The notes below the pieces were generated by a model. That model was given only the letters and a program-made list of their open reading frames with translations. It did no database searches and was not told the origin of the DNA. 64,000 nucleotides of DNA from NCBI GenBank assembly GCA_000091205.1, contig AP006502.2; one strand, written 5' to 3'. This document shows, piece after piece, positions 1 through 51,191 of the stretch. This DNA is from Cyanidioschyzon merolae (Eukaryota). Within the stretch, counting starts at the first letter, position 1, and every line of letters begins with the position of its first letter. The position numbers and the translations under genes are program-made.

Positions 1-211
1 CGCGCACCGGAGAGATCAGGCAGGCATGAGTTATGACGCGCTTGTCGCTGTTGAATGGAAACGCGATCCAAATCTTTATGATCTACCTGTAAAGTACACG
101 TTGTATTTGCATTGAAGTCGTAGCAAACTGTAGTTTCAGTTGAATCGTGTTTCAGCGCTCAAGTAAGAATATTCAAGTGCTTTTTCGCGGTTTATAGCAG
201 AAGCGTTCAAA

Positions 212-951
212 TTGTGTTCTTTCTCGAAAGAAACTAAAAAAAGAAAGTTATGGAAAAGCAAGTGGAAGATCCTCGAGGGCCGGTACCGCCGGCTGCCAGA
301 AGAAAAACAAAAAACAATATGGAGTCCAGAGGAACAGGAGAGGACGAAGAAGCAAAGGCAGAAGGCTCTACTTCAAAGGCTGCAAGAAAGACGACTGTAC
401 GACGAGATGGTGGTGAAAGCCTTTCTTCTTGGACATATCAGGTATCCGTACATACAAAAATTGCGAGAGGCCATCAGAAACCGTGTCGATTCATGCTCCA
501 AGAGTGTTCGCAAGGCTTCTTTAGGACTGATGCGTATGGCCGGGGATATATTCCGCGACGTGACGCACATGGAAACGGTCGAGATTCCGGACGAGTTTTT
601 CGATAAGACGTGTATAGGTCAGCTGATACTTGGTACAGAGGAATCGCGGAAGGAAAATGGGCTAGTCCATGGCCTCCACGAAAAAAACATCCCTTTTACA
701 GCTTCAACGGCGCTCGGTACAAGGGTGACCGGGATATTTACAGCTATGGGGCGATGAAGTACCTCACGAACCTGAAGAACCATTTGACAACGAACCTCGA
801 ACGTTTCATGATACGCGCCGTGTTTGCACTCTACCCGGGCATCTCGCGCAATGGGAAAGGGGCGATGATCAACGGCATCACGAAAGATCGCAGGCATGAA
901 GATGAGGTCGAATTCGTCGACAAGAAGGCATCAAACGCGTGCACGAATTAA
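212..951 (+). pseudogene. Element-borne ORF1 region (lysine-rich N-terminus KKRKLWKSKWK), split into two frames (212..757 and 610..951) at an A7 homopolymer (681-687). It is either decayed or expressed by a -1 frameshift or transcriptional slippage.
   Basis: Both frames are conserved at the amino-acid level in copies B (23089..23852, minus) and C (30635..31309, minus). A fused reading ...GLVHGLHEK|KHPFYSFNGARYKGDRD... would need A8. The product is not recognisable. Confidence 0.35.
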
Positions 952-1166
952 GCTTCTGTAATCCGTGCGGCTGTACAAGAGCACCGTGCGGTACTGGGGT
1001 TGGCGTATCCAACAGACAAGATATCAGAGTTGAAAGAAGATAAGGAAAGATACTATCGCCTCATCCTGCGATATTTCGTGTTTCTGGACTGTGAACTCGA
1101 ACGCAAGGCGGAAATGAAGCTGAGTGAGGAAAAAATGAAGAGTGGGAGAGACGGAAGGCTGTCCTG

Positions 1167-2477
1167 TTGGGGAAGCGCTTCAAGGTCGGTGCGTTATGCA
1201 ACATCAAGTCACATTTTGTGAGTATCGATTCCGGCGTCCTCTACGGCATCATGAGGGAGATCTGTTCGGAGTTCGATGTTAGCAGGGAGGAATTCTCCCG
1301 GGAAAACCGGGAGACGTACTGGAAGAACATCTTCGATTTCAAACGTCTCAAAATGAGCGAGCAAAAGTTATTCACTGGGGTGATTGAAACCGATGGAGTA
1401 GCCATGTGTGTACGCTATCGGCGGTTGAAGAAAGATCGGCCAGTTCCGCCCTCGGCTGCGCCCGTCACGAAGGATGAAGAAAAGGAGGAGGCTGGTCCTG
1501 TGGCGCAGGAGGTGCAGGATGACGATCTTGTCGTTGGCGCGGCGAAGCATGAAGATGAGAAGGAGGCGGATCCTGTGATGCAGGAGGTGCAGGATAACGC
1601 CTTTATGGTTGGCGCGGCGAAGCATGAAGAAACGAAGAAGGCGGGTCCTGCGGTGCAGAAAGTGCAGGAGAACGACTTTGTCGTTGGCGCGGACCCCGGA
1701 AACACAAAAAGCATAACTATCGCAGCACCGAAGCGTGCAGAAGATGGTACTGATGGTAACTTGCGTCAGAAGGACATGCGCCTTTTGAGGTGCTCGAGAG
1801 CAAGATACTATCGAGAATCAGGTGTAATGAATGCAAGGAAGAAAATTGAGGCTTGGAACGAAGGAATGAAGGATCACCTGGAAGCTTTAAGCGAGGTGAC
1901 TAGACGAGGAGCGGACTTTGAGGCTTTTCGGAAATTCATGGAAGTTCGTGTTGCCCATTGGGATGCGCTGTGGGAGGAGTATACCAAGCCCCGCTGGGCT
2001 CGTTTGCGAATGAATCTATACTGTGGGAAGCAGCAGGCGTTCGCGAATTTTTTTAATGAGTTGAGCGCCCTGAAGGAGGATGAAAGTCAGAGGCTCGTCG
2101 TAGCGTACGGAGCAGGGCGCTGGAAGATCCGAAAAGGGTGTACACCAGCTCCAACAACGAGAACGTACAAGGAGTGTGCACGGCGTTTTGTTACAGTATC
2201 GATAGTTGAGTTTCGAGCATCGTATACACACCATGAGCTGGGCTGTATACTTCAGAGAGTGGAGATGGAAAAGTGCCAACGGAGCCCTGAGGATATAGCA
2301 AAGTACGGACCACTGACGGAGGAGCAAATGGAAAGGAGGGCAAAAATTCGTGGACTACTTGCATTAGTAAGTGCAACTCCCAACGGCACGAAACGTATGG
2401 AATTTGTGAACCGTGACTTTAACGCCGCTATCAATATACGGAGATGTGCGGTACTGGAGAAGAGACCTCCATCATAG
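1167..2477 (+). CDS. TnpB/Fanzor-like RNA-guided RuvC endonuclease homolog (OMEGA-type, IS200/605 OrfB family), intact 436 aa
   Basis: RuvC-I-like VVGADPGNT with Asp176. C-terminal RuvC-III signature [16 protein letters not shown] with Asp417, as in TnpB DRDVNAAINI. Degenerate Zn-finger-like segment THHELGC...EKC lies between them. The gene is repeated in three element copies. Confidence 0.75.
1470..1694 (+). repeat. In-frame 3 x 75-bp tandem repeat (25-aa units [21 protein letters not shown]). The third unit carries the RuvC-I Asp; units 1-2 end in GAA instead of GAD.
   Basis: The protein shows LVVGAAKHE / FMVGAAKHE / [10 protein letters not shown]. The antisense ORFs 1368..1625 and 1415..1714 are repeat artefacts. 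Confidence 0.8.
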
Positions 2478-2582
2478 ACAAGAGAGCACTTTATTGAACA
2501 ATCTGTCCAAGTCGAACTATATGAGAGAAAGTTGGAAGCAGTAGGAGGTGGCCGATCCAAGAAGGCGCGGAGGCATCTGCAC
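2478..2582 (+). ncRNA. Candidate omega-RNA (reRNA) scaffold at the element right end. The guide is expected from the flank immediately beyond 2582.
   Basis: A 105-nt segment between the nuclease stop codon and the point where homology is lost. It is conserved in copy B (21458..21561) and partly in copy C. The position matches where TnpB and Fanzor omega-RNAs are encoded. Confidence 0.35.
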
Positions 2583-2762
2583 AACTGTCGGAGATGATTT
2601 GTCCAAGGCGCGGTTGCCGCCACGACTGTCCACGCCCGACATCGTTCGAGTTTGAACAGCGTTTTGGAGGCGCGTAATCGATTCATTCGGTTCGCGTTGG
2701 AGCTTTTCGCGGCGTTTTCGTTTCGTGACTGCCGGACACGGGTTTTTGTGAGAAACAGCGAC

Positions 2763-2990
2763 ATGGCGTCACCAAAGAAGACTGCGACGAAAGCTGCTTC
2801 AGCACCGAAAAAGGCTGCGGCGAAAACGAAGGGCGAACGGAAACCAAACGCTTACCAAGAGTTTATGAAGGCAGAGAGTGCCAAGATTCGGGAGTACAAC
2901 AAAGCAAAAGGAATCGAAATGAGGCCACCTGATATTTTCAAGGAGTGTGCGAAGAGATGGAACGAGAAAAAGTCCAAGACAAAGGCGTAA
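2763..2990 (+). CDS. Small lysine-rich, HMG-box-like DNA-binding protein (75 aa)
   Basis: MASPKKTATKAASAPKKAAAKTKGERKPNAYQEFMKAE...AKRWNEKKSK. The P-x-AY-x-F ... W spacing resembles an HMG box, and the ends are basic. The gene lies 181 bp downstream of the copy A right end in the same orientation. Confidence 0.35.
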   Translation: MASPKKTATKAASAPKKAAAKTKGERKPNAYQEFMKAESAKIREYNKAKGIEMRPPDIFKECAKRWNEKKSKTKA

Positions 2991-3003
2991 AGGCTCTGGA
3001 CTT

Positions 3004-3388
3004 GCGCGGTGGTGACGGTACTGGTGCTGGCGGCAGCGGGTCGTGCAGCTTGTAGTTCATAGTCGGTGACCTGGACGTTGACGGAGCGGTGGTTATGGTG
3101 GCAGTGCTCGTGGTTGAGCTCGGCCCGTTACCCGCCAACGCGCTGAGGGGTCAAAAAGCAATCGGGGCTGTCGGCGTGTCACCGTTACAAAGCTCTGCTG
3201 TTGCAGGATGCGTTTTCCCTCGCCAGTTTGGACAAGAAGCTGCCCTCATTTCGGGGCGCTGGAACCAGTGCGAGGCAGCGCCGAGGCCAGGAGCATATGT
3301 CGGGGACGTTCACAGAGCTGGTTTCGATTGAGGTTGTGACGGTTGTGGTGGTTATGGTGCTGGTGCTGGTGCTGGTCGTGGTGGAACT
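3004..3388. repeat. Imperfect GTG/GCT/GGT-rich microsatellite cluster (e.g. 3333-3388 gttgtgacggttgtggtggttatggtgctggtgctggtgctggtcgtggtgg)
   Basis: Direct reading of the sequence. It produces spurious poly-Val and poly-Thr ORFs on both strands. Confidence 0.7.
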
Positions 3389-5695: not shown

Positions 5696-7149
5696 CAGAA
5701 ACTTGGCGCCACGAAACGAATGCATCAGCGCCACGATCGCTTCGGCGCAATCGGCGATGGGCGCGCTGGTGCACTCGCTGGCATCTGTGCAGCGCGATCC
5801 GTCGCTTACCGGGTTCGTTAAAGGTAACGCGCAGCTGGTGGATGTAGTTCAGTTCATGGGTCTGAATGCTGACGAAAATTGTGCATTTCCAGGTCACTGG
5901 ATTTGTGTCGTGAGACCGCTGCATGTAGAAGCGGGTTGTTCATTCACGGCATCAAAAGCTCGTTGTGTGGTGAGTCGTTTTGCGCATTCAGCCTCGAAGT
6001 GTACGCTCGAATCGGCAACGGTCTGAGAAACATTTTGAGCTATGGGTGGACTCCAAAATCAGGCCAAGCAAAGTGTTTCTCTTCAAACGGGCATGCTGAG
6101 GCGCCATCACGAGCCTTCATAGGAGAGCCTCAAGTCGGGTACCGCGAGTAGAAGCCATGGAGATTTAGCGCGTTATTTTGGCTCTAGTCAGTGACGTGGA
6201 TTGAATGAAACAGCGCTTTCGTTCAACAATTCCCATGAAAAACAGCTCCCAGTGGAAACATATAGATCGCGCTTTAGCTCTGGAGTACTGGTGAAACGCG
6301 CGGTACCATGGCTAGCTGCAGGCGCGAATCGAATCCTCTGTCGACCGGACGCTGGTTATTTTCATCAAAAGTCTGCAGCGTTTCAGGAAATGATCCATAT
6401 GGAGCACTCAACGACTCATCGGGATGTTCGTTCGTCCGTTCGTTCGCTCGAGCCAATACCGCTGAACGCTCCGGAAGCATGGGACATACCCGAATGGTCA
6501 TCGAGGCGATCGAGTCGCGGTCTACAAACTGCCTGCGCCCATTGTTGGCAGTAGAATCACACCAGAGTATGCTTCTCATTTTCGATTACCTCGCCATCGG
6601 TCGTGAAGTCAGCTTACCGTACACAATCCCGTGCATCTGACTCCGCCTCACGCTCTTCTTCTCTAACAGTTTTTGTTTGCGCCCGAGCTCGTGATGCGTT
6701 CACGTCGTCCTGAACATATCCATGGGTGTGGTTTCAGAATCGATTCATGGTTTATCATATGCTGTCGTTCAAGAAGCAGGCGTGCAGCCTTTTTGCGCCA
6801 CAGCACGTCCAGCGCCATTGGCTACCATCAAGCGACGTTACGCATCGGTCATTTGCGTTCCCAGCTCTTGGATCGAGCAGTCGAATGGACGCTTCCTGCC
6901 TCCGCACAACCGAAGCGGTAGACGATGCTTGTGCGATCCGAGGAACTGCCACAGGTCGTCTGCACAAGCCATTTGGACGATGACGTACGCTCCCTTCATG
7001 AAGCGTGCCGCGCGTGTCGCTTTGCTCGAAAAGGTGCTCAGGGCGTCGAAGTCGAACTCCAAGTCGCGACGCCGACCTTTCATTTGTTAGGGCGCTTCCT
7101 GCCGTCGATGAAGCCCTGCTCTCGATCATGTAGAGCGCTGGAAATGCTG

Positions 7150-7170
7150 AGCAGCAGCAGCAGCAGCAGC
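7150..7170. repeat. (AGC)7 trinucleotide microsatellite
   Basis: agcagcagcagcagcagcagc. Confidence 0.9.
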
Positions 7171-9485
7171 ATCTGCTTCCTGTTCCTGCCTTTCGTGTCG
7201 TTCTCTAGAATAGGAGTTGCGGCGACGGTCATGGTGTCGTTCAACTCGATTTGGATGTCCACCACAAACTCCCTCTGGTCACGCATGTTGAGCGGGTGAA
7301 AAAGAGTCTTGTTTGTCGACTAAAGCCTTGGTATCACAGAACGCACGCACATGGGTACTCCGTCCGTCTCCGTTGTCCCCAGAGACTTTCTTCGGTACCC
7401 TTCAAGAACTCCAGAAATCGTGAACGAGCCCCGCCAGTGCTCTGCTCGGAGTTCCCCGAATGCTCTAAACTTGCGCGGAGCAACTAGCGGGAGCTAAATG
7501 AGCAGGCCATACAGTACAGCACACAAGCGTCTACGTTAGTGTGATGAGCCTTTATCTAAAATGTGCGAGCAGCATCGAACACATGCTCGGGGAGGCTAAG
7601 GTGCTCGGTTTCGTAAACGGAGTCAGCCTTTCTCTGGAGGGCGCTTCACTGGAATACGAAGTAGCGCAAGATGGAAGCAAGGCGGGCATCACGTTCCAAT
7701 CATCCCTCGGATACAGTGTCCATTTGGCCGAGCCCGAGTTGAACGAGCTGAGCTTGCAGCATCTGAAACGACTCTCGCTCTCGTTGCGACATCTCTTCCG
7801 AACTCGCGAAAATCTCGAGCTCGTCGGTCACCAGCAACGCATTTGTCTCCATCGGCAGCCCAGTGATGTTTTCCATTAGGATCCACTTTATTGGGCTAGA
7901 ATGGTGAGGCTAAAACGCGCACATGGTGCTCTTTTTGGAGTGTTTGAGATTGGCCTTCATATGATGTTTGAGGTCGGATCGACTTTTTCCTGGTACCTGG
8001 AGAGCGTTTCTTCCAGTCTCTGATCCCACTATCAGGCTGCACTGCATCTTCTGTGCCGAGCATCAGAGGTGCTGTTGCACGACGGTTTGGTCGACGCGTT
8101 CCAGAAGAATGTGAGCAGCTGTCAGCCCTGCATCGGAAACGAGTTTGAACCTACGCTTGACGAGGTGCAGCCAGGCGACTGAGGCTAGACGAGACATGCT
8201 CGAATCAGTAGCCACGAACATCTCTGTGGCATTCTACATCTTTCAGCCTCACGGATGCGAACGAATCGTCTATTGATCCGTAAGCGTAAAAATGACGGTA
8301 GATTGTAAAGAAGACGCTTTGGAGCAGACTGAACCGGGAAGAAGAAGTTCACACGAGGAGCAACACAGCGTAAATCTCAGCTGGGTACGTCTTGATAATA
8401 CTCGAGCGATGGAAAGTGGCATTCTCCAGGAGCAGAGCAAAACAGTTTGGCACGGGAAAGCCAAGAATTGTGCTTCGACGAAGGATATACTTTGAACAAT
8501 CCTGCTTTTTTTGCGATTTGTGATCGACCGCACGATTGCGTTGCTACAGCGGCTGATGTTGTCGTCGTTCTCGCTTGTCTCTTATGTACGCATACCGATT
8601 TTTCTTCTTTGAATACCCATATATAGACCCACCATTTATCCCAAATAGGGGGTCTTGTCAAGTGAGATGAACGCCAGCCACTCCTGCGATAAATGTACTC
8701 TTTTTCGTACGAAATCGACAATGCGTTGTTGAACACACAGGATTCTGGAATGGATGCGCAGTTTTTTGTCCATGCCCGTCCATAGCTCTTCATACCTGTT
8801 CGTGTCGACGCTATAAAAAGCTCATTTGCTGCTGCCTCATCTTGAGTATTTCGTAAAGAAACCTATGGAATAAGATCGATTGACATGTACAGTCGAGTCC
8901 ATAGAATTTGAAATGTTCTATTTCTGGGTGCGCTGTGTTCAGGTAAAGCACGACCCCGAGCGTGACTCATCCACCTGCAGGCCGTAGAATGACGAACTCG
9001 TAGAAGCACAACTGTTTTCCTGCAGCTGTCAGCGACAGCATCCAGTCTTTCAACGATGTTTCCCCACTTTCCAGGAAATACTTCTTTTGTTGAATACGTG
9101 CAAGAAAATCGAGTAAAAACGAAACATGGCATGCTTTAACAGGTATTTCAGAATCTACCGCTCCGCGTACCATGCTCTTCATCGACGACACCCGAGACTT
9201 ACTCGCGAAACGAACCCACCACCGAAAGGCCTATGCAGAAACGCCACACATGGATCAAACCGCACGCTCCGGGGAACGTCGGGCAGTTGCATTGGCGGAA
9301 CGCACACGAGCGTCGATAGAAGGACTCGAGTGTCTTCTCGCTGGTTACTGGGAGCGTGCTGTCGTTCGTCGGACTCGGGCCGTTCCTATTAATTCTTCTT
9401 CAGGAACAGTCCATTCATAAGTGATCCGAGCAACTCAATCGCTGCGTCGACCTCTTGAGTGTCGTTGAAACTTGCGCACTGTGCG

Positions 9486-20232: not shown

Positions 20233-21369
20233 TCACAAAGTCGCGGACGCCTTGCGGTAATAAGGCGGCCACAGATCATAACCGAATCGCTCGTAATCCT
20301 CGGCGTACAATTTTCTAACCCTTTGCGCCAGACGTTCGTTCACGTGCTTGTGCAAGAGGCTTGCTGCGCTCTGGGAGTGCAGGGTATTCCGGCCGCTCGC
20401 TTGTGCTCGCTTCCGCATGGATTCGTGCCACTCGAGACCGGCCTGACCAAACATATCCACGTAAAACTTTCGAAGTGACTCGGGTTCATCTACTTTTCCG
20501 ATACAGTCGAAGAATGTCCGAGGCAGCATGCGAAAAAGGCAGAAGCCCGACTGTGGGCGCCAATGTTCGTCGAACGGTGTCAGATCTGGGGTCATGGTCT
20601 TTGCAGCCTCTTCCAGGTAGTCCACAAAACGTTCAAACGAGTGAGGGTATCGATTTTTCAATGGATATCGTTCCAGTTCGCGTCCAGCTTTGACTTTATC
20701 AAGGTAAGCCGACAGCAAGCGTGTAAGCGGATGGCGCACCAGGGCACCAAACTTCCACGATGGATCCGAGAGCACTCGAAGAAGCTCCTCGTCCTGCAAA
20801 TGAAGGAGCTGCGTCAAGTTTGCGCGGCCTTGCGGATGAATCAAGTGGATTTCATCGGCATCCAGGGGGTCCAGAACCACCCCCAGCGTTTCCCGCAAAG
20901 CAAATGCACGTGCGGCAGTACAACCGGCTTTCGGTATCGAGCAGAGCAGGCGCTGTTGTTTCGCGAATACGATAACGCCAACAAACGATTGCTCCTGTTC
21001 CCGACGCCAAAGATCAGAAATATTCTGAAAATACTCTGCAAGCGGTTTTTCATTGAAGAGACTTGCAAGCACTGGGGCTTGCCAGGAAAAGTTTACTGTG
21101 TGAGAACGATACTCACTCGGAGAAGATGTTTCGAGTCCGGGCGACGGAACCATGAGGGTTTGCAGCACGCGGTGCGAGGCCAGGATCAGAAGCAACACCC
21201 AGAAAACGGTGAACCAGAAAAACCACCGAAACCATAAATGCATATCTATTTCCTCTACACCGACACGTTGCTTTCCAGGGAAACGAGTGGGAAGATCGTG
21301 TTCCCTCACTCGCCTAATACAAAGCGCCAATGGCTGCAGAAGCGCTGGTGCGGAGTACGCCGCACGCAC
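20233..21369 (-). CDS. Golgi-type carbohydrate sulfotransferase (Sulfotransfer_2 family), type II membrane topology. The likely true start is the Met at 21243 (MHLWFRWFFWFTVFWVLLLIL).
   Basis: 5'-PSB-like IPKAGCTAARA and 3'-PB-like VRHPLTRLLSAYLDK, plus EHWRPQS and a C-terminal YAEDYERFGYDLWP. It is a paralog of 26163..27236. Confidence 0.6.
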   Translation of the reverse strand: MRAAYSAPALLQPLALCIRRVREHDLPTRFPGKQRVGVEEIDMHLWFRWFFWFTVFWVLLLILASHRVLQTLMVPSPGLETSSPSEYRSHTVNFSWQAPVLASLFNEKPLAEYFQNISDLWRREQEQSFVGVIVFAKQQRLLCSIPKAGCTAARAFALRETLGVVLDPLDADEIHLIHPQGRANLTQLLHLQDEELLRVLSDPSWKFGALVRHPLTRLLSAYLDKVKAGRELERYPLKNRYPHSFERFVDYLEEAAKTMTPDLTPFDEHWRPQSGFCLFRMLPRTFFDCIGKVDEPESLRKFYVDMFGQAGLEWHESMRKRAQASGRNTLHSQSAASLLHKHVNERLAQRVRKLYAEDYERFGYDLWPPYYRKASATL

Positions 21370-21457
21370 GCACCAAACGCCGTTCGAACTTGAACGACGT
21401 CGGGCGTGTACAGTAGTGGCGGGAAAACCGTCTTAGATTAGAAGTCTCCAACTGACG

Positions 21458-21561
21458 TGCAGATGCCTCCGCGCCTTTTTGGATCGGCCACCTCCTACTG
21501 CTTCCAACTTTCTCTCATATAGTTCGACTTGGACAGATTGTTCAATAAAGTGCTCTCTTGT
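21458..21561 (-). ncRNA. Candidate omega-RNA scaffold of copy B. The flank beyond 21457 (element orientation: gtcagttggagacttctaatct...) would be the guide.
   Basis: About 97% identical to 2478..2582. It ends at the same ...ggaggcatctgcac boundary. Confidence 0.35.
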
Positions 21562-22872
21562 CTATGATGGAGGTCTCTTCTCCAGTACCGCACATCTCCG
21601 TATATTGATAGCGGCGTTAAAGTCACGGTTCACAAATTCCATACGTTTCGTGCCGTTGGGAGTTGCACTTACTAATGCAAGTAGTCCACGAATTTTTGCC
21701 CTCCTTTCCATTTGCTCCTCCGTCAGTGGTCCGTACTTTGCTATATCCTCAGGGCTCCGCTGGCACTTTTCCATCTCCACCTTCTGAAGTATACACCCCA
21801 GCTCATGGTGTGTATACGATGCTCGAAACTCAACTATCGATACTGCAACAAAACGCCGTGCACACTCTTTGTACGTTCTCGTTGTTGGAGCTGGTGTACA
21901 CCCTTTTCGGATCTTCCAGCGCCCTGCTCCGTACGCTACGACGAGCCTCTGACTTTCATCCTCCTTCAGGGCGCTCAACTCATTACAAAAATTCGCGAAC
22001 ACCCGCTGCTTCCCACAGTATAGATTCATTCGCAAACGAGCCCAGCGGGGCTTGGTATACTCCTCTCCCAGCGCATCCCAGTGGGCAACACGAACTTCCA
22101 TGAATTTCCGAAAAGCCTCAAAGTCCGCTCCTCGCCTAGTCACCTCGCTCAAAGCTTCCAGGTGATCCTTCATTCCTTCATTCCAAGCCTCAATTTTCTT
22201 CCTTGCATTCATTGTACCGGATTCTCGATAGTATCTTGCTCTCGAGCACCTCAAAAGGCGCATGTCCTTCTGACGCAAGTTACCATCAGTACCATCTTCT
22301 GCACGCTTCGGTGCTGCGATGGTTATGATATGTGTGTTTCCGGGGTCCGCGCCAACGACAAAGTCGTTCCCCTGCACTTTCTGCACCGCAGGACCCGCCT
22401 TCTTCGTTTCCTCATGCTTCGCCGCGCCAACCATAAAGGCGTTATCCTGCACCTCCTGCATCACAGGATCCGCCTCCTTCTCATCTTCATGCTTCGCCGC
22501 GCCAACGACAAGATCGTCATCCTGCACCTCCTGCGCCACAGGACCAGCCTCCTCCTTTTCTTCATCCTTCGTGACGGGCGCAGCCGAGGGCGGAACTGGC
22601 CGATCTTTCTTCAACCACCGATAGTGTACATACAATGCTACTCCATCGGTTTCAATCACCCCAGTGAACAACTTTTGCTTGCTCGTTTTGAGACGTTTGA
22701 AATTGAAGGTGTTCTTCCAGTAGGTTTCCCGGTTTTCACCGGTGAAGTCCTCCCTGCTAACATCGAACTCCGGACTGTTCTCCCTCATGATGCCGTAGAG
22801 GACGCCGGAATCGATACTCACAAAGTGTGACTTGATGTTGCATAACGGAACGACGTTGAAGCGCTTCCCCAT
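21562..22872 (-). CDS. TnpB/Fanzor-like RuvC endonuclease homolog, intact 436 aa (about 93% aa identity to copy A)
   Basis: Same motifs as copy A: VVGADPGNT and [26 protein letters not shown]. Length and stop position are identical. Confidence 0.75.
22345..22569 (-). repeat. 3 x 75-bp in-frame tandem repeat inside the copy B nuclease gene (same as 1470..1694)
   Basis: The protein has an identical repeat structure. The antisense ORFs 22081..22830 and 22319..22624 are artefacts. Confidence 0.8.
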
Positions 22873-23088
22873 TCGGACAGCCTTCCGTCTCTCCTACTCT
22901 TCATTTGTCTCTTCACTCAGCTTCATTTCCGCCTTGCGTTCGAGTTCACAGTCCAGAAACACGAAATATCGCAGGATGAAGCGATAGTATCTTTCCTTAT
23001 CTTTTTTCAACTCTGATATCTTGTCTGTTGGATACGCCAACCCCAGTACCGCACGGTGCTCTTGTACAGCCGCACGGATTACAGAAGC

Positions 23089-23852
23089 TTAATTCGTGCA
23101 CGCGTTTGATGCCTTCTTGTCGACAAATTCGACCTCATCTTCATGCCTGCGATCGTTCGTGATGCCGTTGATCATCGCCCCTTTCCCATTGCGCGAGATG
23201 CCCGGGTAGAGTGCAAACACGGCGCGTATCATGAAACGTTCGAGGTTCGTTGTCAAATGGTTCTTCAGGTTCGTGAGGTACTTCATCGCCCCATAGCTGT
23301 AAATATCCCGGTCACCCTTGTACCGAGTACCGTTGAAGCTGTAAAAGGGATGTTTTTTCGTGGAGGCCATGGACTAGCCCATTTTCCTTCCGCGATTCCT
23401 CTGTACCAAGTATCAGCTGACCTATACACGTCTTATCGAAAAACTCGTCCGGAATCTCGACCGTTTCCATGTGCATCACATCACGATACATCTCCCTCAC
23501 CAAATGCATCAGTCCTGACGACGCCTTGACAATACTCTTGGTGTACGAGTCGACACGTTTTACGATAGCGTCTCGCAACAATTCCCTGTGGGGATCCTTG
23601 ATATGTCCAAGAAGGAAGGTTTTCACCACCTTCTCGTTGTACAGTCGTCTTTCTTGCCGCCTTCGACGTAGGGCCTCTCCCTTTCGGTTCTTCTTCTATT
23701 CCTTTTCTCCTGGACTCGGCACTGTTTTTTGTTTTTTCTGGCAGCCTGCGACCCTGGGCCTCCAGGATCGTGGACATGCTTTTCCATAGCTTTCCTTTTT
23801 GTTTTTTTTTTGAAGAAGAACGCTCTTTGAACCCTTCTGTTATATACTGCAA
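23089..23852 (-). pseudogene. Element ORF1 region of copy B, broken into at least 3 frames (23089..23370, 23312..23629, 23481..23852). The homopolymer is A6 (T6 at 23353-23358 on the + strand).
   Basis: Amino-acid homology to 212..951, with HPFYSFNG.RYKGDRDIYSYGAMKYL...VEFVDKKASNACTN identical. Additional indels occur near the N-terminus. Confidence 0.35.
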
Positions 23853-25870
23853 AAAAACACTAGACTAGAGTTGTTTGAAGTTTGAAACAAAAACGAACTG
23901 AAAGGCTGTACTTTGCAATGACCTCAACGAAAATACAACTTTTAGAACAGAGCTACACGAATGAGATCGAGATCGCGTCTCTCTTCAACGACGGCACGCA
24001 CATCGTGTCAGTTAACTGCGCGATCTCCCAAGCGCGCTCGCTATGCGCAATGCGTGCACCGCGCGAGACGCTACTCGGATCGATGAAGGACACGTGTTCG
24101 ACGCCGCATTGGCACATGCGCGTTAGCATCGCACTGGAGCTGAAATAAAGTATCATAGACCGGAAACTCACGTGGAACGATCTCTTGCTATAAGCTATGT
24201 CGCTCGTGCACATCGCAGTACGGACCTGACATACATGGAGATGTAGGGGCCTGGCACGATACCCCTCGACGCTTCTATCAAAAGCGTAGTCGCGGTAGCA
24301 TCTTACGCTTGTGCGGGTAAGGTATGCATCACACCAGCTTGGAAGGGTTTCGTTCGGTTTATTGATCGTAAATAAAGTAGGCACAGTCGTATAACCAAGT
24401 ATGAATATACGTTTATTCTCTATCCTTGTTATGCATGCAGCGCAGACGCTGGAATAAGGAACTGACCTGAATTTTGCTTCTATCCTGCGTTATGTTCCGG
24501 AACTGATGGCACTTCAAGTCATTTCCATGCTACCGTCATTGTCCAAGTTATGGTGCCCGCTACTCTCCCGGATCCGGTGATCTCCGCAGAGGTAAAGCAC
24601 ACACATGTACCGTCCATACCTGCCATGACGTTTGAGCCTTGCGTCTCGCCTGGCACCATGGAGGCACCAGCACCACAGCGCCCCGTACGCGCTAGATCGC
24701 AACGAGTCTCTCGCGAAGCGCATTTTGCTGACACACCGGGGTTTCGATGGATCACGGATCCAAGTGCAGATCCCTCATGTGGCATGGAGGCATGGTCCAT
24801 GCATGCAGAGGAGTTATCCGTATGTCGTTGCGATTTGTGCGCTTCCACACAGGTGGCCCCAAGTATCGAACAGAAGCGTATGCAGAACGCTGCAGCACTG
24901 TCGTTGACAAGTATCGCTACAATATGGGGCCTTTAAAACCGTCAGGTACGCTGGCTTGTTTGCGTTTCTGTCGGACGAAGGTTGGTGACTTGGTTGTTAA
25001 AGAGGCAGCATGGCGTGAGCAGAGGCCGCGGTACTCGCGCAGGCACCATGACCTTCGGTTGGAGCCATAGGTGTGGGTCAGCGTCCCGAAAAGCGATCTG
25101 AAGAACAACGTCTGTGTTATGGGTCGAAAGCGGCTGCTTTTGTACACCACTGGGCGCAGCAAATAACGACACTTTAAGAACGATGCTCGCATCTCTGCAA
25201 CGGACCCGGTTTGAGGCGACTGCCCCTGCAGGCACACGATTCGCCACGCGGTTGCGCTTCTGATCGATGTTGTGCTCGATGAGCGTGGTCACGCATTGCG
25301 ACCGGTAAATAAGAGTATCTTTCCTTACGTTCAAGACTGGCATGCAACCGCGTTTGTGCTCACTAAATGTCTTATTCCAGAACCTAGTTGCACCTGTCGG
25401 AACAAGCATTTCGTTCAGTTGCTGGGGTGCGGCTGGTGCATCATTGTGGTTTGCAACGCGCTCTAGAAAGACGCGCTTCCGGTGCGCACTGCCGAGTGCC
25501 CGGCGGGTAGCGAACGAACGCAGCGTCTCTTATGAGTGACGAGAATCCGTGCGTAGCGCTGCTCGTTCCTCTCCGGACTGGAACGCTGGTGTCAAAGGCG
25601 GTGACTCGCAGACGGGAATCTAGTGCTCGTCGCAGGAACCGTTGTGGCACTAGACCGCACAGCTCCCATGACGCTGCTATACGCAAACACGCTGAAGGAG
25701 TCAGACGACGTTCCCTATGTCAAATTTTGCACCAGGACGCGTCCAGATGTTGCCACTACCGCATGTAGATTTCGAGCTCGTTAAAAAAAGAACCTTCTGG
25801 CCCTGCCAGCTTGGCGGATAGATCCCATTGCCAGATGCGTTCACCCGAATCCAAGCGAATGGACGCGGCC

Positions 25871-29347: not shown

Positions 29348-30588
29348 CTCGCAGACGCCTCCCAGTCTTTCTCGACCGGCCTGCTTCTGTCGGTTTCAGC
29401 ATCTCCCTATACATTTCGACGCTGAAAGGCTGTCCAGCAAAGTTGGCTCGCGTCTGCTCCGCGGGTCTCTTCTTCAGCACCGCGCATCTTCGGATACTGA
29501 TAGCAGCGATAAGGTCTCGGCTCACAGACTCCATGCGTTTCTTGCCGCCGCCTGTACACGGCAATGCGAATAGGCCTCGAACTTTCGCCCTCCTTCCCAT
29601 TTGCTCTTCCGTCAACGCTCCGTACTTTCTTACATCCTCGGGGATCCGCTGACGCTTTTCCATCTCGACCCTCTGAAGTGTACACATCAGCTCGTGGTAC
29701 ACGTAGGACGTTCGGAACTCATCTGTAGGTATCGTGACGAAACGCCGTGCGCTCTCCTTGTACGCTCGTGTCGACGGAGCTGGCGTAGTCCCTTTTTTCG
29801 ACGCCCAGCGCTCTGCCCCGTATGCAACACGAGCCTTTGACTCTCGTCCTCTTTGAGGGCGTTCAGCTCGTTGGAAAAGTTGGCGAATGCACGCTGCTTC
29901 CCACAAAAGAAGCTGATACGCAGACGAGCCCAACGGGGCTTTGTGTACTCTTTCCACAGCGCCTCGTACTGAGAAACGCGAACTTTCACGAATTCCCGAA
30001 AAGCTCGAACGTCCGCCCGACGGCTCGTCACCTGGCTGATCGCTGCTAGGTGTTCTTTGACTCCTGAGTTCCACTTCTCACTCTGTATCCTTGGATTCCT
30101 TACCCAGACTCTCGGTAGCACCCAGCGCTTGAGAACCTCAAAAGACACATGCCTTTCTGACGTAAGTTACCTTCAATGCCGTTTCCCCCGCGTTCGAGTG
30201 CTGCGATGGTCACGGTATCCGTGTTCTCGGGGTCCGCGCCAACGACAAAATCGTTGCTCTGCACCTGCTGTGCCGCAGGGCCCGCCTCCTTTTCTCCACG
30301 CTTCGTCAAAATCGACAACAAAAACGGAATAGGACGATCCGCCTTCAACTGCCGATCGTGCACATACATGGCTACTCCATCGGTTTCGATGACGCCTGTG
30401 AATACCTTTTGCTTGCTCGCATGGAAACGTTTGAAATCGAAGATATTCATCCAGTATGTCTCCCGATTTTCGGCGTTGAACTCTATGTTCCTTACATCGG
30501 ACTCTGGACAGACCTCCTTCATGATGCCGTCAACGGCTGTGGAGTCGATAGTCACGAAATGTGATCTGATGTTGCACATTGGAACCAC
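29348..30588 (-). pseudogene. TnpB/Fanzor-like nuclease pseudogene. It needs at least 2 frameshifts (fragments 30100..30588, 29687..30148, 29304..30074), has a single repeat unit and lacks a stop at the homologous position.
   Basis: VVGADPENT is retained, but RuvC-III is altered to RDLIAAISIRRCAVL and the Zn-finger Cys are lost ([20 protein letters not shown]). The ORF reads through the right end into the flank. Confidence 0.65.
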
Positions 30589-30634
30589 GTTGAAGCGCGT
30601 CCCCAGAAGCGCCGCCTTCCCTCTCTCTTACTCT

Positions 30635-31309
30635 TCATTTCTCCCTCACCCAGCTCCTTTTCGGCCTTGCGTTCGAGTTCTCAGTCCAAAAACACGAAAT
30701 AGCGCAGGATGAGGTGATAGTATCTTTCCTTATCTTTTTTCGTATGTGCAACCTTTTTGCTGGGTTGACAAGCCCCAAGACTGCACGGTGCTCTTGTAGA
30801 GCAGCACGGATTCCAGAAGCTTCGTTGTTTCTCCTGCGTGATGTCTTCTTGTCGACGAATTCGATCTCATCTTCACGCTGGCGATGGTTCGTGACGTCAT
30901 TGATGAAGGCCCGTATCCATCTACTAGACAGGTCCGGGTAGAGTGCAAACACGGCGCGTATCATGGAGCGTTCGATGCTCATGGTCAAGTGGTTCTTCAG
31001 GTTCGTGAAGGACTTTTTCGCATCGTAGGTGTAAATATCCGCCTCAGCCTCGTACCGTCTACAGCTGAAGCGATATTCGGCGTAATTCTAGTGGAGAACG
31101 TGCACTCGCTCGTCTCTCCTCGTCGTTCTCCCTGTTCCAAGCATCAGGTTGCTGATATATATCATATGGAAAAATTCCTCCGGAATCTCGACTATTTCCA
31201 TGTGCGTCAGGTCGTCGTGCATCTCGTTCACCAAATGGATTCGTTCTGACGAGGCCTTTATATTACTCATGGAGCACGAGTCGACACGGTTTCTGATGGC
31301 CTCTCGCAA
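30635..31309 (-). pseudogene. Remnants of element ORF1 in copy C (30635..30988 and 31088..31309)
   Basis: MIRAVFALYPDLS...EDEIEFVDKKTS and REAIRNRVDSCS...THMEIVEIPEEFF are homologous to the ORF1 frames of copies A and B. Confidence 0.4.
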
Positions 31310-32684
31310 CTTTTCCTTTTACGGATCCATGACATGTTTAAGAAGGTAGGCTTTCGCCACCGTCCAGTCGTACTGTTGTCTTTCCCGCAGCCTTTTCTGC
31401 GTGGGGCCTCCTGCCTTTGCTTCCTTGTCCTCTACTGTTCCTCTAGACTCGGCACTGCTTTTTGTCTTTTCCGGCAGCTGGCAACAGCGGTCCTTAAGGA
31501 TCCTCTATTTGCATCCCCATAACTTTTTTTATTTTTGAAAACGAACGCACTTTGAACGGATCTGATATGAACCGCGAAAAATCACTTGAATAAACTGAAC
31601 TGAGGCTTGAAACACGATTGGATTGAAAGCGCACACTTTGCTATGACTTCAATGCAAATACAACTTGTACTTTAGAGCAACAAGCTAATGATCAGAATTG
31701 CATTTCTCTTCAACTGCGAGATACGAATCGTGTCTCATTCCTGCCAGATTTAGAGGTGCGCGGATCGACCGGGCTTTAGAAAAAAGAACAGATACGAACC
31801 ACTAGCTAGGAAACACAAGTTCTTTGGCAATCTACGGTAAACGTTTCAAGGGGAAAAGGTGTCCACATTGTCGGAAGTTTACCTTCTACGCGGAAAGTGC
31901 CGCAAGCCGGACGAGTCTGCACGTCTTGCGCTTCATGCTCCCTCCAGTGTTGGGTGGTGTTGTAAGATATGAGCTGCTCTTGTGCAATCCGGTTTATTCT
32001 GGAATTCGGAGCAGGTATGCTGCGTCTGCGTGTTGCCCTGCTCGCAGGATTATCCGAGTGTATCGCTTCGCGCTGTCGCAGACACTGGGTCTGTATGCCG
32101 AGTTTCCAGACTCCTAGAATGATTATGTACTCAGACCCCGTGATGGGTAAACGAAGTCTCGAGACGATGCCCTAAGTGGTATGGCAAAGCCATTTTGTAA
32201 CCGTGATGTTCGGCATCAGCGGTATAGGCGCTGATGTAGGTGTTCGTAGCAGATACTCTGCGAACGATAGAACGTACAAACCGGCCAATACATCCGAGAG
32301 GAGGTAATGGAACCTGGAGTCATGGTGCAGCAGTATGATGGACGCTTTCCCGAAAGCCATTATCCAATGATCCTGCAATCTAGAATCCTTGGTCAATGGA
32401 ATGGTTCTGTCATCACCGTTAAGGATGCGCAGCCGGGGATCCTGGTCGTCGATGTTGCCTTGTTGTCCCGCAAACTTCATTGCCGAAGATCTGGTACTAA
32501 AGTATATAATTATGTCCATAAAGGATCCAGGTATCCCACATCGCCAAGGCGCTCTGGGCCGCGATCTCCCCGGCGCCGCCTTGGGCGCAGCAGAGCGCAG
32601 CGTCTGACGGACCGGGAGCATTAGCACTGGACGCGAAAGTTTAGGATTAGGATTGACGCCCGCAAGAGTACCTAGATCGTTTTT

Positions 32685-49592: not shown

Positions 49593-51191
49593 TCACAAGG
49601 GATTACGAAGAACCTTTTCCAATACGGTGACATTCGGCGCGGCCACAGCACGACGTGCTTTAACGTGCGACAAGGCATCCTCCAGCGTCATGCCGCGGCG
49701 CCACACGAGGTAGGCGACAACTACAGCGGGCGCTCGACCCATTCCTGCGGTACAGTGCACGTAGACGACGCGCTTCGCCTTGAGCGCCGCATCAAGAGCG
49801 CGTACGGCATCCGGAAGCAACTGCATGAGCGCCTCCGCATTAAAATCCGGAATCGGACAACGGATGACTTGCATCTCTAGTGCTGTATATGTCTCCATCA
49901 GCGTCGACCAGGGAATACTGCGGTGTGCAAAGTCCTCATCGGTCTGTAAATTCAAAACAGCCGTAATCCCCGCCTCATGCATCATTTCGACATGCTCTGG
50001 AGTTTGTGGGTAGGGCCCTATGTAAATGTCCGGACATATTTCATCAAATTCTAACGAAGCGACAAAATTTGCATCGAAACATTCGAGGCGCCCGTTCACC
50101 GCTCGTTCTAGTGTTGCATAGCGATTCGGTTCTCGTTCCCAGATCGTTTGCTGGCGGTTATCGTCGACTAGCACATAGCGATAGGCGAATTTGCCCACCG
50201 TGGATGGCACTGAAACCGTCAAGGACCAACGTCGGCCCTTGCCTCCTGTTTCCAAACGCTCCTCAGTAGTTGAGAGGGCCATGGGTACTGGACCCGGTTC
50301 TACCCACCGACCGATTTCCGGAAGATCGCCAGTGACACAGAGATGCTGCTTCTCTTTGGTAGGATAGTATATTGAGAACAGCACACGCGTACGCTCCCAT
50401 TCCACTTCAATCAGGCAGCCGTCCTTCGAGTTTCTCTGGATCACGGCTCTTCGGTTGGGTCCGGTTTCCCAGAGCGCACGCTGCGGATCTCCGCCTATAA
50501 GACGCACGAATTTGAACTCGAAGCTTGTTTCGGGTACAAGGTCTACCTCGCCTTCCCAGCAGTCACGGAACGGTGTATCCACTTGGCATTGATGACGGAG
50601 CCGGAGCGCTTTCGCGGGCTCCCAGTTGCCCAATTTGTCGTGACTACCAGCGGCGACGACAGCATCGCCAAACTCCGTGTGGCAGTAGACGCGGAATAAA
50701 GTCGGAATCGTCGGGGTTACGCTTCGATCATTCTTTGAGATCGTGTCCGCAATGTCTGAAGGAGGCCCAGGTACAGAGATATCCTCGGAAGCACCCCGTG
50801 CGGCTGGTGTTGACTGCGCACCAGACGAATCAGCAGCTGGCTTTGACGGAGGCTCAGGTACAGAGACACCCTCGGATGCAAACCGTGCGGCTGGTGTTGA
50901 CTGCGCACCAGACGAATCGGCAGCTGGCTTTGATGGAGGCCCAGCTACAGAGACTCCCTCGGAAGCACGCCGTGCGGCTGGTGTTGACTGCGCACCAGAC
51001 GAATCAGCAGCTGGCTTTGACGGAGGCTCAGCTACAGAGACTCCCTCGGAAGCACGCCGTGCGGCTGGTGTTGACTGCGCACCAGACGAATCAGCAGCTG
51101 GCGCTCTTGCCATCGACGGCACCCGATGCCGGCTTTCCGAGCCTGCCTGGTCGTTTGTGTTCCGGCGATCCGATGTTCGTATACGCGCCAT
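49593..51191 (-). CDS. Laforin/SEX4-like glucan phosphatase (two CBM20 starch-binding modules + dual-specificity phosphatase) with an N-terminal tandem-repeat region
   Basis: CBM20-like FRVYCHTEFGDAVVAAGSHDKLGNWEPAKAL and LFSIYYPTKEKQHLCVTGDLPEIGRW. DSP active site VHCTAGMGRAPAVVVAYLVW. Confidence 0.6.
   Translation of the reverse strand: MARIRTSDRRNTNDQAGSESRHRVPSMARAPAADSSGAQSTPAARRASEGVSVAEPPSKPAADSSGAQSTPAARRASEGVSVAGPPSKPAADSSGAQSTPAARFASEGVSVPEPPSKPAADSSGAQSTPAARGASEDISVPGPPSDIADTISKNDRSVTPTIPTLFRVYCHTEFGDAVVAAGSHDKLGNWEPAKALRLRHQCQVDTPFRDCWEGEVDLVPETSFEFKFVRLIGGDPQRALWETGPNRRAVIQRNSKDGCLIEVEWERTRVLFSIYYPTKEKQHLCVTGDLPEIGRWVEPGPVPMALSTTEERLETGGKGRRWSLTVSVPSTVGKFAYRYVLVDDNRQQTIWEREPNRYATLERAVNGRLECFDANFVASLEFDEICPDIYIGPYPQTPEHVEMMHEAGITAVLNLQTDEDFAHRSIPWSTLMETYTALEMQVIRCPIPDFNAEALMQLLPDAVRALDAALKAKRVVYVHCTAGMGRAPAVVVAYLVWRRGMTLEDALSHVKARRAVAAPNVTVLEKVLRNPL
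50741..51107. repeat. 4 x 87-bp near-identical tandem repeats encoding PPSKPAADSSGAQSTPAARRASEGVSVAE units at the phosphatase N-terminus
   Basis: The DNA units ...ccagacgaatcagcagctggctttgacggaggc...gtgcggctggtgttgactgcgcacc are repeated almost verbatim. Antisense ORFs 50525..51247 and 50743..51321 are artefacts. Confidence 0.85.

Follow-up and report, generated by a model that had tools for sequence, protein, structure and literature searches.

Near the left edge of a 64,000-nucleotide stretch of Cyanidioschyzon merolae DNA (the window), an open reading frame (ORF) with the motifs of a RuvC nuclease carries three tandem, in-frame copies of a 75-bp segment, placed directly ahead of the codon for the first catalytic aspartate. 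This arrangement raises the question of whether the array is a working part of a nuclease, a lesion in it, or a length change of little consequence. The original prediction viewed it as a recent and unusual expansion inside intact nuclease genes, by which a catalytic strand was duplicated, and it offered both a flexible acidic linker and a disrupted fold as possible outcomes.

The window belongs to C. merolae 10D, as two of its proteins, a TruD-like one and Twinkle, match BAM83395.1 and BAM83387.1 exactly. One Fanzor1 family, CMe-1A, has been described in this alga (Bao & Jurka 2013, Mobile DNA 4:12, PMC3627910), with a consensus of ~3.2 kb that lacks terminal inverted repeats (TIRs) and encodes a 734-aa Fanzor1 protein; about 150 copies were reported, each ~80% identical to the consensus, and some of them intact. 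The consensus (3,169 bp) was retrieved from the supplement of that paper and aligned to the window by blastn, which yielded three copies with 80 to 87% identity over 2.5 to 3.1 kb. Copy A lies at positions 1 to 2661 on the plus strand (consensus 659 to ~3169), its left end being cut by the window edge, and its aligned part, 1 to 2633, matches consensus 659 to 3137 at 85 to 87% identity. Copy B occupies 21378 to 24009 on the minus strand (consensus 687 to ~3169), of which 24009 to 21406 aligns to consensus 687 to 3137, again at 85 to 87% identity. Copy C, at 29351 to 32414 on the minus strand, is full length and heavily decayed (consensus 2 to 3084, 80.6% identity). The three copies are members of CMe-1A, i.e., the same element in the same genome, and all of them are pseudogenes, in contrast to the intact copies reported for the family.

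Lesions were mapped against both the published consensus and a relative that is open over 752 codons (locus L001, protein P0003). Copy A carries a 2-nt insertion in an A-run at ~681, a TAA stop at 949 to 951, a 1-nt deletion at ~1132, and a TAG stop at 2475 to 2477. Copy B (minus strand) has a 1-nt insertion in the same A-run and four in-frame stops, including the TAA and the TAG of copy A, and five frameshifts and five stops were counted in copy C (minus strand). A complete ORF, as required of a functional Fanzor1, was thus found in none of the three copies, all of which contain frameshifts and premature stops, and the description of these loci as intact nuclease genes has to be withdrawn. 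What remains in copy A is a longest ORF of 436 aa at 1167 to 2477 (plus strand, TTG start), and copy B likewise retains one of 436 aa at 21562 to 22872 (minus strand). These ORFs cover the C-terminal ~60% of a Fanzor1 protein of ~734 aa, starting at an internal Met/Leu codon with ~290 N-terminal residues missing, and should not be taken for intact nuclease genes. The copy A ORF still holds the three motif codons, D at 1692 to 1694, E at 2208 to 2210, and D at 2415 to 2417, which are kept in copy B as well; the exact 436-aa sequence of copy A was not found in the protein collection searched. Introns and sequencing errors were considered as sources of the frameshifts and ruled out, for the ORFs of the reference relative and the consensus run without interruption, copies A and B have two substitution stops in common, and independently assembled loci have lesions of their own.

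Since the TAA and TAG stops are shared, the common ancestor of copies A and B was already dead. Aligned to each other (303 to 2675 versus 21364 to 23736), the two copies form a mosaic, with 84% identity at 303 to 686, 98% at 682 to 1135, and 95% at 1133 to 2675, and their similarity stops near the right end of the element (~2661 and ~21378). The alignment pattern suggests mobilisation or duplication of a dead copy, parts of which were afterwards converted by others. The dN/dS ratio between their RuvC halves is ~0.35 although both copies are dead, which fits conversion.

We then turned to the identity of the encoded protein. Neither a single sequence nor a close-family profile found a match among PDB sequences, and Pfam scans of the 436-aa ORF and its close homologs returned nothing significant, with only a sub-threshold match to Cas12f1-like_TNB. 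A profile of 73 sequences (P0003 plus 72 distant homologs) matched the solved Fanzor1 structures 9cf0 of Parasitella (E = 3.2e-20), 8gkh of Spizellomyces (E = 6.7e-12), and 9cer of Guillardia (E = 1.8e-6), and the RuvC motif residues D484, E656, and D725 are invariant or nearly so among the 73 homologs. In a Foldseek search with the P0003 model, the top seven hits were all Fanzor1 (SpuFz, PpFz, and GtFz; E values from 7.5e-17 to 1e-13), with Cas12 proteins next in rank, and the best match was SpuFz with an E value of 7.5e-17 and a TM score of 0.72. By profile and modelled fold, the gene is a Fanzor1 (TnpB-like) nuclease with a RuvC domain split over D, E, and D motifs, for which nuclease activity is predicted; the earlier assignment to the TnpB/Fanzor type of RuvC nuclease was borne out. 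Profile similarity, fold, and D-E-D motifs are shared with SpuFz1 (8gkh, 9ceu-9cez), PpFz1 (9cf0-3), and GtFz1 (9cer), and in the profile alignments these proteins, too, have an insertion of variable length that separates the TDG strand from RuvC-I. They differ from the CMe-1A protein in sequence, with an identity of only 12 to 16%, and the window copies, unlike them, are pseudogenes. No tandem repeat was seen in that linker among the distant relatives examined.

A minor feature of the gene was noted at its 3′ end. An omega RNA of a Fanzor is expected to overlap the gene near its 3′ end. Across 47 loci, the codon-position asymmetry in conservation (positions 1 and 2 above position 3) vanishes at consensus 2971 to 3060 (0.88 versus 0.86), a stretch that corresponds to window ~2467 to 2556 in copy A, near the 3′ end of the ORF; the lost asymmetry is a hint of an overlap with a putative omega RNA.

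Tandem Repeats Finder (TRF) reported the array of copy A at 1468 to 1692 as 3.0 copies of a 75-bp period with 82% matches and a score of 310, and a mirror array in copy B at 22347 to 22571 (period 75, 3.0 copies, score 296). Taken together with the translation, the units of copy A (plus strand) were set at 1470 to 1544 (25 residues), 1545 to 1619 (81% identical to unit 1), and 1620 to 1694, the last being the native unit that runs on into RuvC-I with the Asp codon GAC at 1692 to 1694; by homology to P0003, this third unit would supply strand β1. Copy B has its three units at 22345 to 22569 on the minus strand (22569-22495, 22494-22420, and 22419-22345), with the RuvC-I Asp codon at 22347-22345, and copy C contains a single-unit linker, SILTKRGEKEAGPAAQQVQSNDFVVG, followed by ADPENT, at 30238 to 30315 on the minus strand. 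The predicted pattern of three in-frame 75-bp units in copies A and B and one in copy C was therefore reproduced by TRF and translation, along with the peptides quoted for it.

The register of the duplication explains the alanine that had been read as a non-catalytic substitute for the RuvC-I aspartate. From the sequence and the consensus, the duplicated 25 codons can be written as [A K...V V G A] and the ancestral order as V-A-[K...V-V-G]-A-D-P, with junctions reading ...VVGA/AKHE...VVGA/DPG. The catalytic Asp codon thus lies one codon outside the duplicated unit, and for this reason the Ala at the apparent Asp position is the first residue of the next unit rather than a mutated Asp. The units do copy the N-terminal part of the strand together with the linker, so the notion of strand duplicates holds to that extent, while the alanine proves to be a junction residue and not a substitution. 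Since the duplicated segment ends one codon before the Asp, each extra unit adds an acidic stretch of ~18 residues and a spare hydrophobic strand segment, DFVVG. When the duplication junction was read by eye for a clue to the mechanism, no convincing microhomology 75 bp apart was seen.

As to the age of the array, the units of copy B are 100%, 100%, and 97.3% identical to those of copy A, whereas the units within copy A are only 80 to 81% identical to each other, i.e., more diverged than copy A is from copy B. The expansion in A and B is accordingly not recent, contrary to the initial impression, and these sequence comparisons place the triplication before the A/B split.

To learn how the array behaves elsewhere in the family, we used 71 related loci from hot-spring metagenomes; units were counted at 45 distinct loci, orthologous contigs having been merged. 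This census mostly represents metagenomic Cyanidioschyzon populations ~2.4% diverged from 10D, not the other ~150 copies of the 10D genome, and a second homologue search with the alignment as the query recovered only the same close family, with no added diversity. In the 78 homologous proteins that have both anchors, 1 to 6 units make up the linker, and the 45 distinct DNA loci contain 1, 2, 3, 4, 5, and 6 units in 10, 9, 7, 12, 4, and 3 cases, respectively. The expansion is therefore ordinary for the family instead of unusual, and unit number varies among copies as was foreseen for a neutral minisatellite. The published CMe-1A consensus, read from the supplement, has a single unit in the linker, compared with three in copies A and B and up to six in the relatives, and the term "tandem repeat" is absent from the main text of the paper (PMC3627910); consensus building concealed this length polymorphism of 1 to 6 units.

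Unit number also differs between versions of one locus. The same locus assembled from two samples (L016 and L019) has five units in one and three in the other, with flanks that are 99.3% and 98.8% identical, and the extra units are near-identical neighbours; an orthologous pair (L025 and L026) has four and three. Whole-unit differences were found in 2 of the 15 orthologous locus groups. For 90 of 94 units, the closest match belongs to a different locus and usually occupies an equivalent positional class (25 of 27 for last units), which implies that most arrays were inherited via transposition of multi-unit elements, with occasional changes in situ. A gapless identity of 80% or more was tried as the definition of orthologous multi-unit arrays and abandoned as non-discriminating, any two units being ~79% identical; one pair passed a stricter threshold.

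Decay is general in these relatives. Stops or frame changes turned up in nearly all of the 71 loci, and each of the 33 loci whose ORF coverage exceeds 2 kb has one or more stops or frameshifts beyond the limits of the array; some arrays contain stops and frameshifts themselves. No fully intact multi-unit gene was seen among the related loci. The most open gene found is that of P0003, with four units and an open frame of 752 codons, from which the consensus start and the final ~33 codons are missing.

Selection on the array was evaluated by pooled Nei-Gojobori dN/dS over non-independent pairs, computed without a tree or confidence intervals, and the ratio was 1.02 for units within one array, 0.94 when last or single units were compared across loci, and 1.38 for internal units, versus 0.25 for the 100 codons downstream (RuvC-I onward) and 0.46 for the 80 codons upstream. 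The flanking gene thus bears the signature of past purifying selection, which is also found in loci with arrays of three or more units (dN/dS of ~0.2 for the RuvC half). Within the unit, the acidic 18 codons gave 1.11 in last units and 0.98 in first and internal units, and the seven strand codons (DNDFVVG) gave 0.53 in the last unit and 1.23 in first and internal units. Consistent with the latter, the last unit ends with NDFVVG in 18 of 30 multi-unit arrays, and internal units mostly end with NDLVVD or a similar sequence. By these estimates, constraint is seen in no unit other than the one joined directly to the Asp.

Two further observations bear on the history of the arrays. In loci L004 to L073 and the window copies, stop codons are rarer in the arrays than codon composition predicts (3 observed versus 10.6 expected; P = 0.007), and the flanks exceed the arrays about twofold in synonymous divergence, as exemplified by the L059/L008 pair, in which pS is 0.05 in the array and 0.34 in the RuvC half. 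Both are likely a product of unit turnover, with homogenisation or conversion between copies, and conversion as a cause fits the mosaicism of copies A and B with its successive segments of 84%, 98%, and 95% identity. Alternatively, they may reflect selection for an open array or a constraint at the nucleotide level.

The position of the array in the protein was inspected by AlphaFold2. A run with 48 close homologs gave an unusable model (pLDDT 41), and one with 72 distant homologs gave a usable model of the four-unit relative P0003 (pLDDT 82.6, pTM 0.81). The only segment of this model below pLDDT 50 comprises residues 385 to 469, that is, units 1 to 3 and the first half of unit 4 (the units start at 381, 408, 433, and 458). 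The last unit contributes a confidently placed strand at 479 to 485 (FIVGADP), which contains D484. In the model, only the last unit provides RuvC β1 and the catalytic Asp, and the other units are disordered. The array of this relative, which stands in here for the window copies, is modelled as a loop between a β-hairpin (350 to 370) and RuvC β1, outside the core. A location of the repeats inside the RuvC core, which had been named as a sign of inactivation, was not seen, and the proposed flexible acidic linker agrees with the array being the only low-confidence segment of a confident model and with its dN/dS of ~1. The equivalent stretch is 29 to 139 residues long (median, 36) in the 72 distant homologs. 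Lineages that remained under purifying selection appear to have accommodated 25 to 125 extra residues in the loop that joins the TDG strand to RuvC-I. Judged from these alignments, this loop would be a candidate position at which internal fusions might be accepted in engineered Fanzor1 proteins. The longest insertion, 139 residues in the distant Fanzor1 homolog P0262, is located at the site of the CMe-1A repeat (linker at ~330 to 400) and contains SAP-like motifs (Pfam SAP, E = 0.002); this site can apparently accept a DNA-binding motif.

We reasoned that the array is a coding VNTR, or minisatellite, with a 75-bp (25-codon) period in a disordered linker ahead of RuvC β1 of the CMe-1A Fanzor1 gene, in which gains and losses are tolerated and which has no present function in copies A and B; we put the probability of this reading at roughly 85%. 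Replication slippage or unequal exchange would add and remove units, and since 75 is divisible by three, no such length change would shift the reading frame. Such changes would have been tolerated in source elements that were once active, since the units insert into a loop that lies clear of the RuvC core and can vary in length; multi-unit elements would have transposed, so that most arrays were inherited, and arrays would go on changing in copies that are already dead. The three units of copies A and B lack a present function because the genes are broken elsewhere. In its multiple-of-three period, copy number variation among paralogues and among strains, and charged low-complexity peptide with predicted disorder, the repeat resembles coding minisatellites that form disordered regions, such as those in yeast cell-wall genes and Borg elements; it differs from them in sitting in transposon pseudogenes, and by dN/dS (~1) there is no evidence of selection for the CMe-1A repeat. 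Its biological weight is little, given a family published in 2013, an ordinary in-frame minisatellite, and mostly dead genes.

The most substantial competitor, though an improbable one, is that the acidic array is a selected functional module of Fanzor1, either a tunable disordered tether or a DNA-mimicking autoinhibitory loop beside the RuvC site, whose expansion was adaptive in active source elements. Multi-unit elements did propagate, in that arrays are mostly inherited between loci, and the low dN/dS of the RuvC half at loci with at least three units implies that those lineages were under purifying selection; moreover, arrays contain fewer stops than expected, their acidic composition is kept, and the most open gene, that of P0003, has four units. 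A module under selection is hard to reconcile, however, with a dN/dS of ~1 for the units and above 1 for the internal ones, with a unit number that is spread evenly from 1 to 6 without a favoured value and shifts in situ in already dead copies, or with single-unit copies being common and the published consensus being single-unit. Nor does the in-frame state need selection at a period of 75 bp, and the variable positions, as read from the units, fall in CpG-containing codons (GCG and ACG), so the variation looks mutation-driven. Slightly less credible still is the more specific version in which a disordered module of tunable copy number, serving as an autoinhibitory DNA mimic or a tether, was expanded by active CMe-1A sources and the stop deficit and low synonymous divergence record constraint. 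If the array were such a selected module, Fanzor1 nucleases would possess in this linker a natural site for regulation that also accepts insertions.

That the extra strand copies compete with the native β1 and disrupt the RuvC fold, which would make the triplication itself the inactivating lesion of copies A and B, is very unlikely. Hydrophobic residues do occupy the three strand positions (xFVVx) in 98.5% of the non-terminal units (first and internal), and these segments could pair in place of the native strand. Against this, the P0003 model has only the last unit in the sheet and the rest disordered, the RuvC domain stayed under purifying selection in multi-unit lineages, the same site holds 29 to 139 residues in relatives, and copies A and B were already killed by frameshifts and stops elsewhere. 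Mis-assembly is a general hazard of tandem repeats, yet an assembly or sequencing artefact has a negligible chance of accounting for the array; no evidence in support of it was found. Three units of identical pattern occur in two separate copies of the window, A and B, and a metagenome contig orthologous to copy B (L007), independently assembled, has a three-unit array of the same 231-nt length. Furthermore, identity among the units is 80% and not complete, which makes a collapse or expansion error implausible.

In addition to the minisatellite, several features of the window and of the family were recorded. The 5′ 630 bp of the CMe-1A consensus, which is 95% identical to TE-N2_CMe (Bao & Jurka, PMC3627910), is present in only about 7 to 13 of 52 related loci (L005 to L073), an absence that may partly reflect the 2.5-kb flank limit; copy B likewise begins at consensus ~687, and most copies seem to be without this 5′ module. 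A fourth Fanzor1-like relic, heavily degraded, lies at window 6442 to 7993 on the minus strand and shares 23 to 35% amino acid identity with P0003 (tblastn E = 6e-23, RuvC half); it is probably from a different and older Fanzor lineage than CMe-1A. About 100 bp past the right end of copy A, a small lysine-rich ORF at 2761 to 2990 (plus strand) gave a weak match to HMG_box_2 (Pfam, E = 0.009). Finally, a second in-frame coding tandem repeat, with 4.0 copies of an 87-bp period at 93% identity, was located at 50757 to 51102 inside an ORF at 49593 to 51191 on the minus strand; this ORF is apparently a host gene, which means that coding minisatellites also occur outside the transposon.
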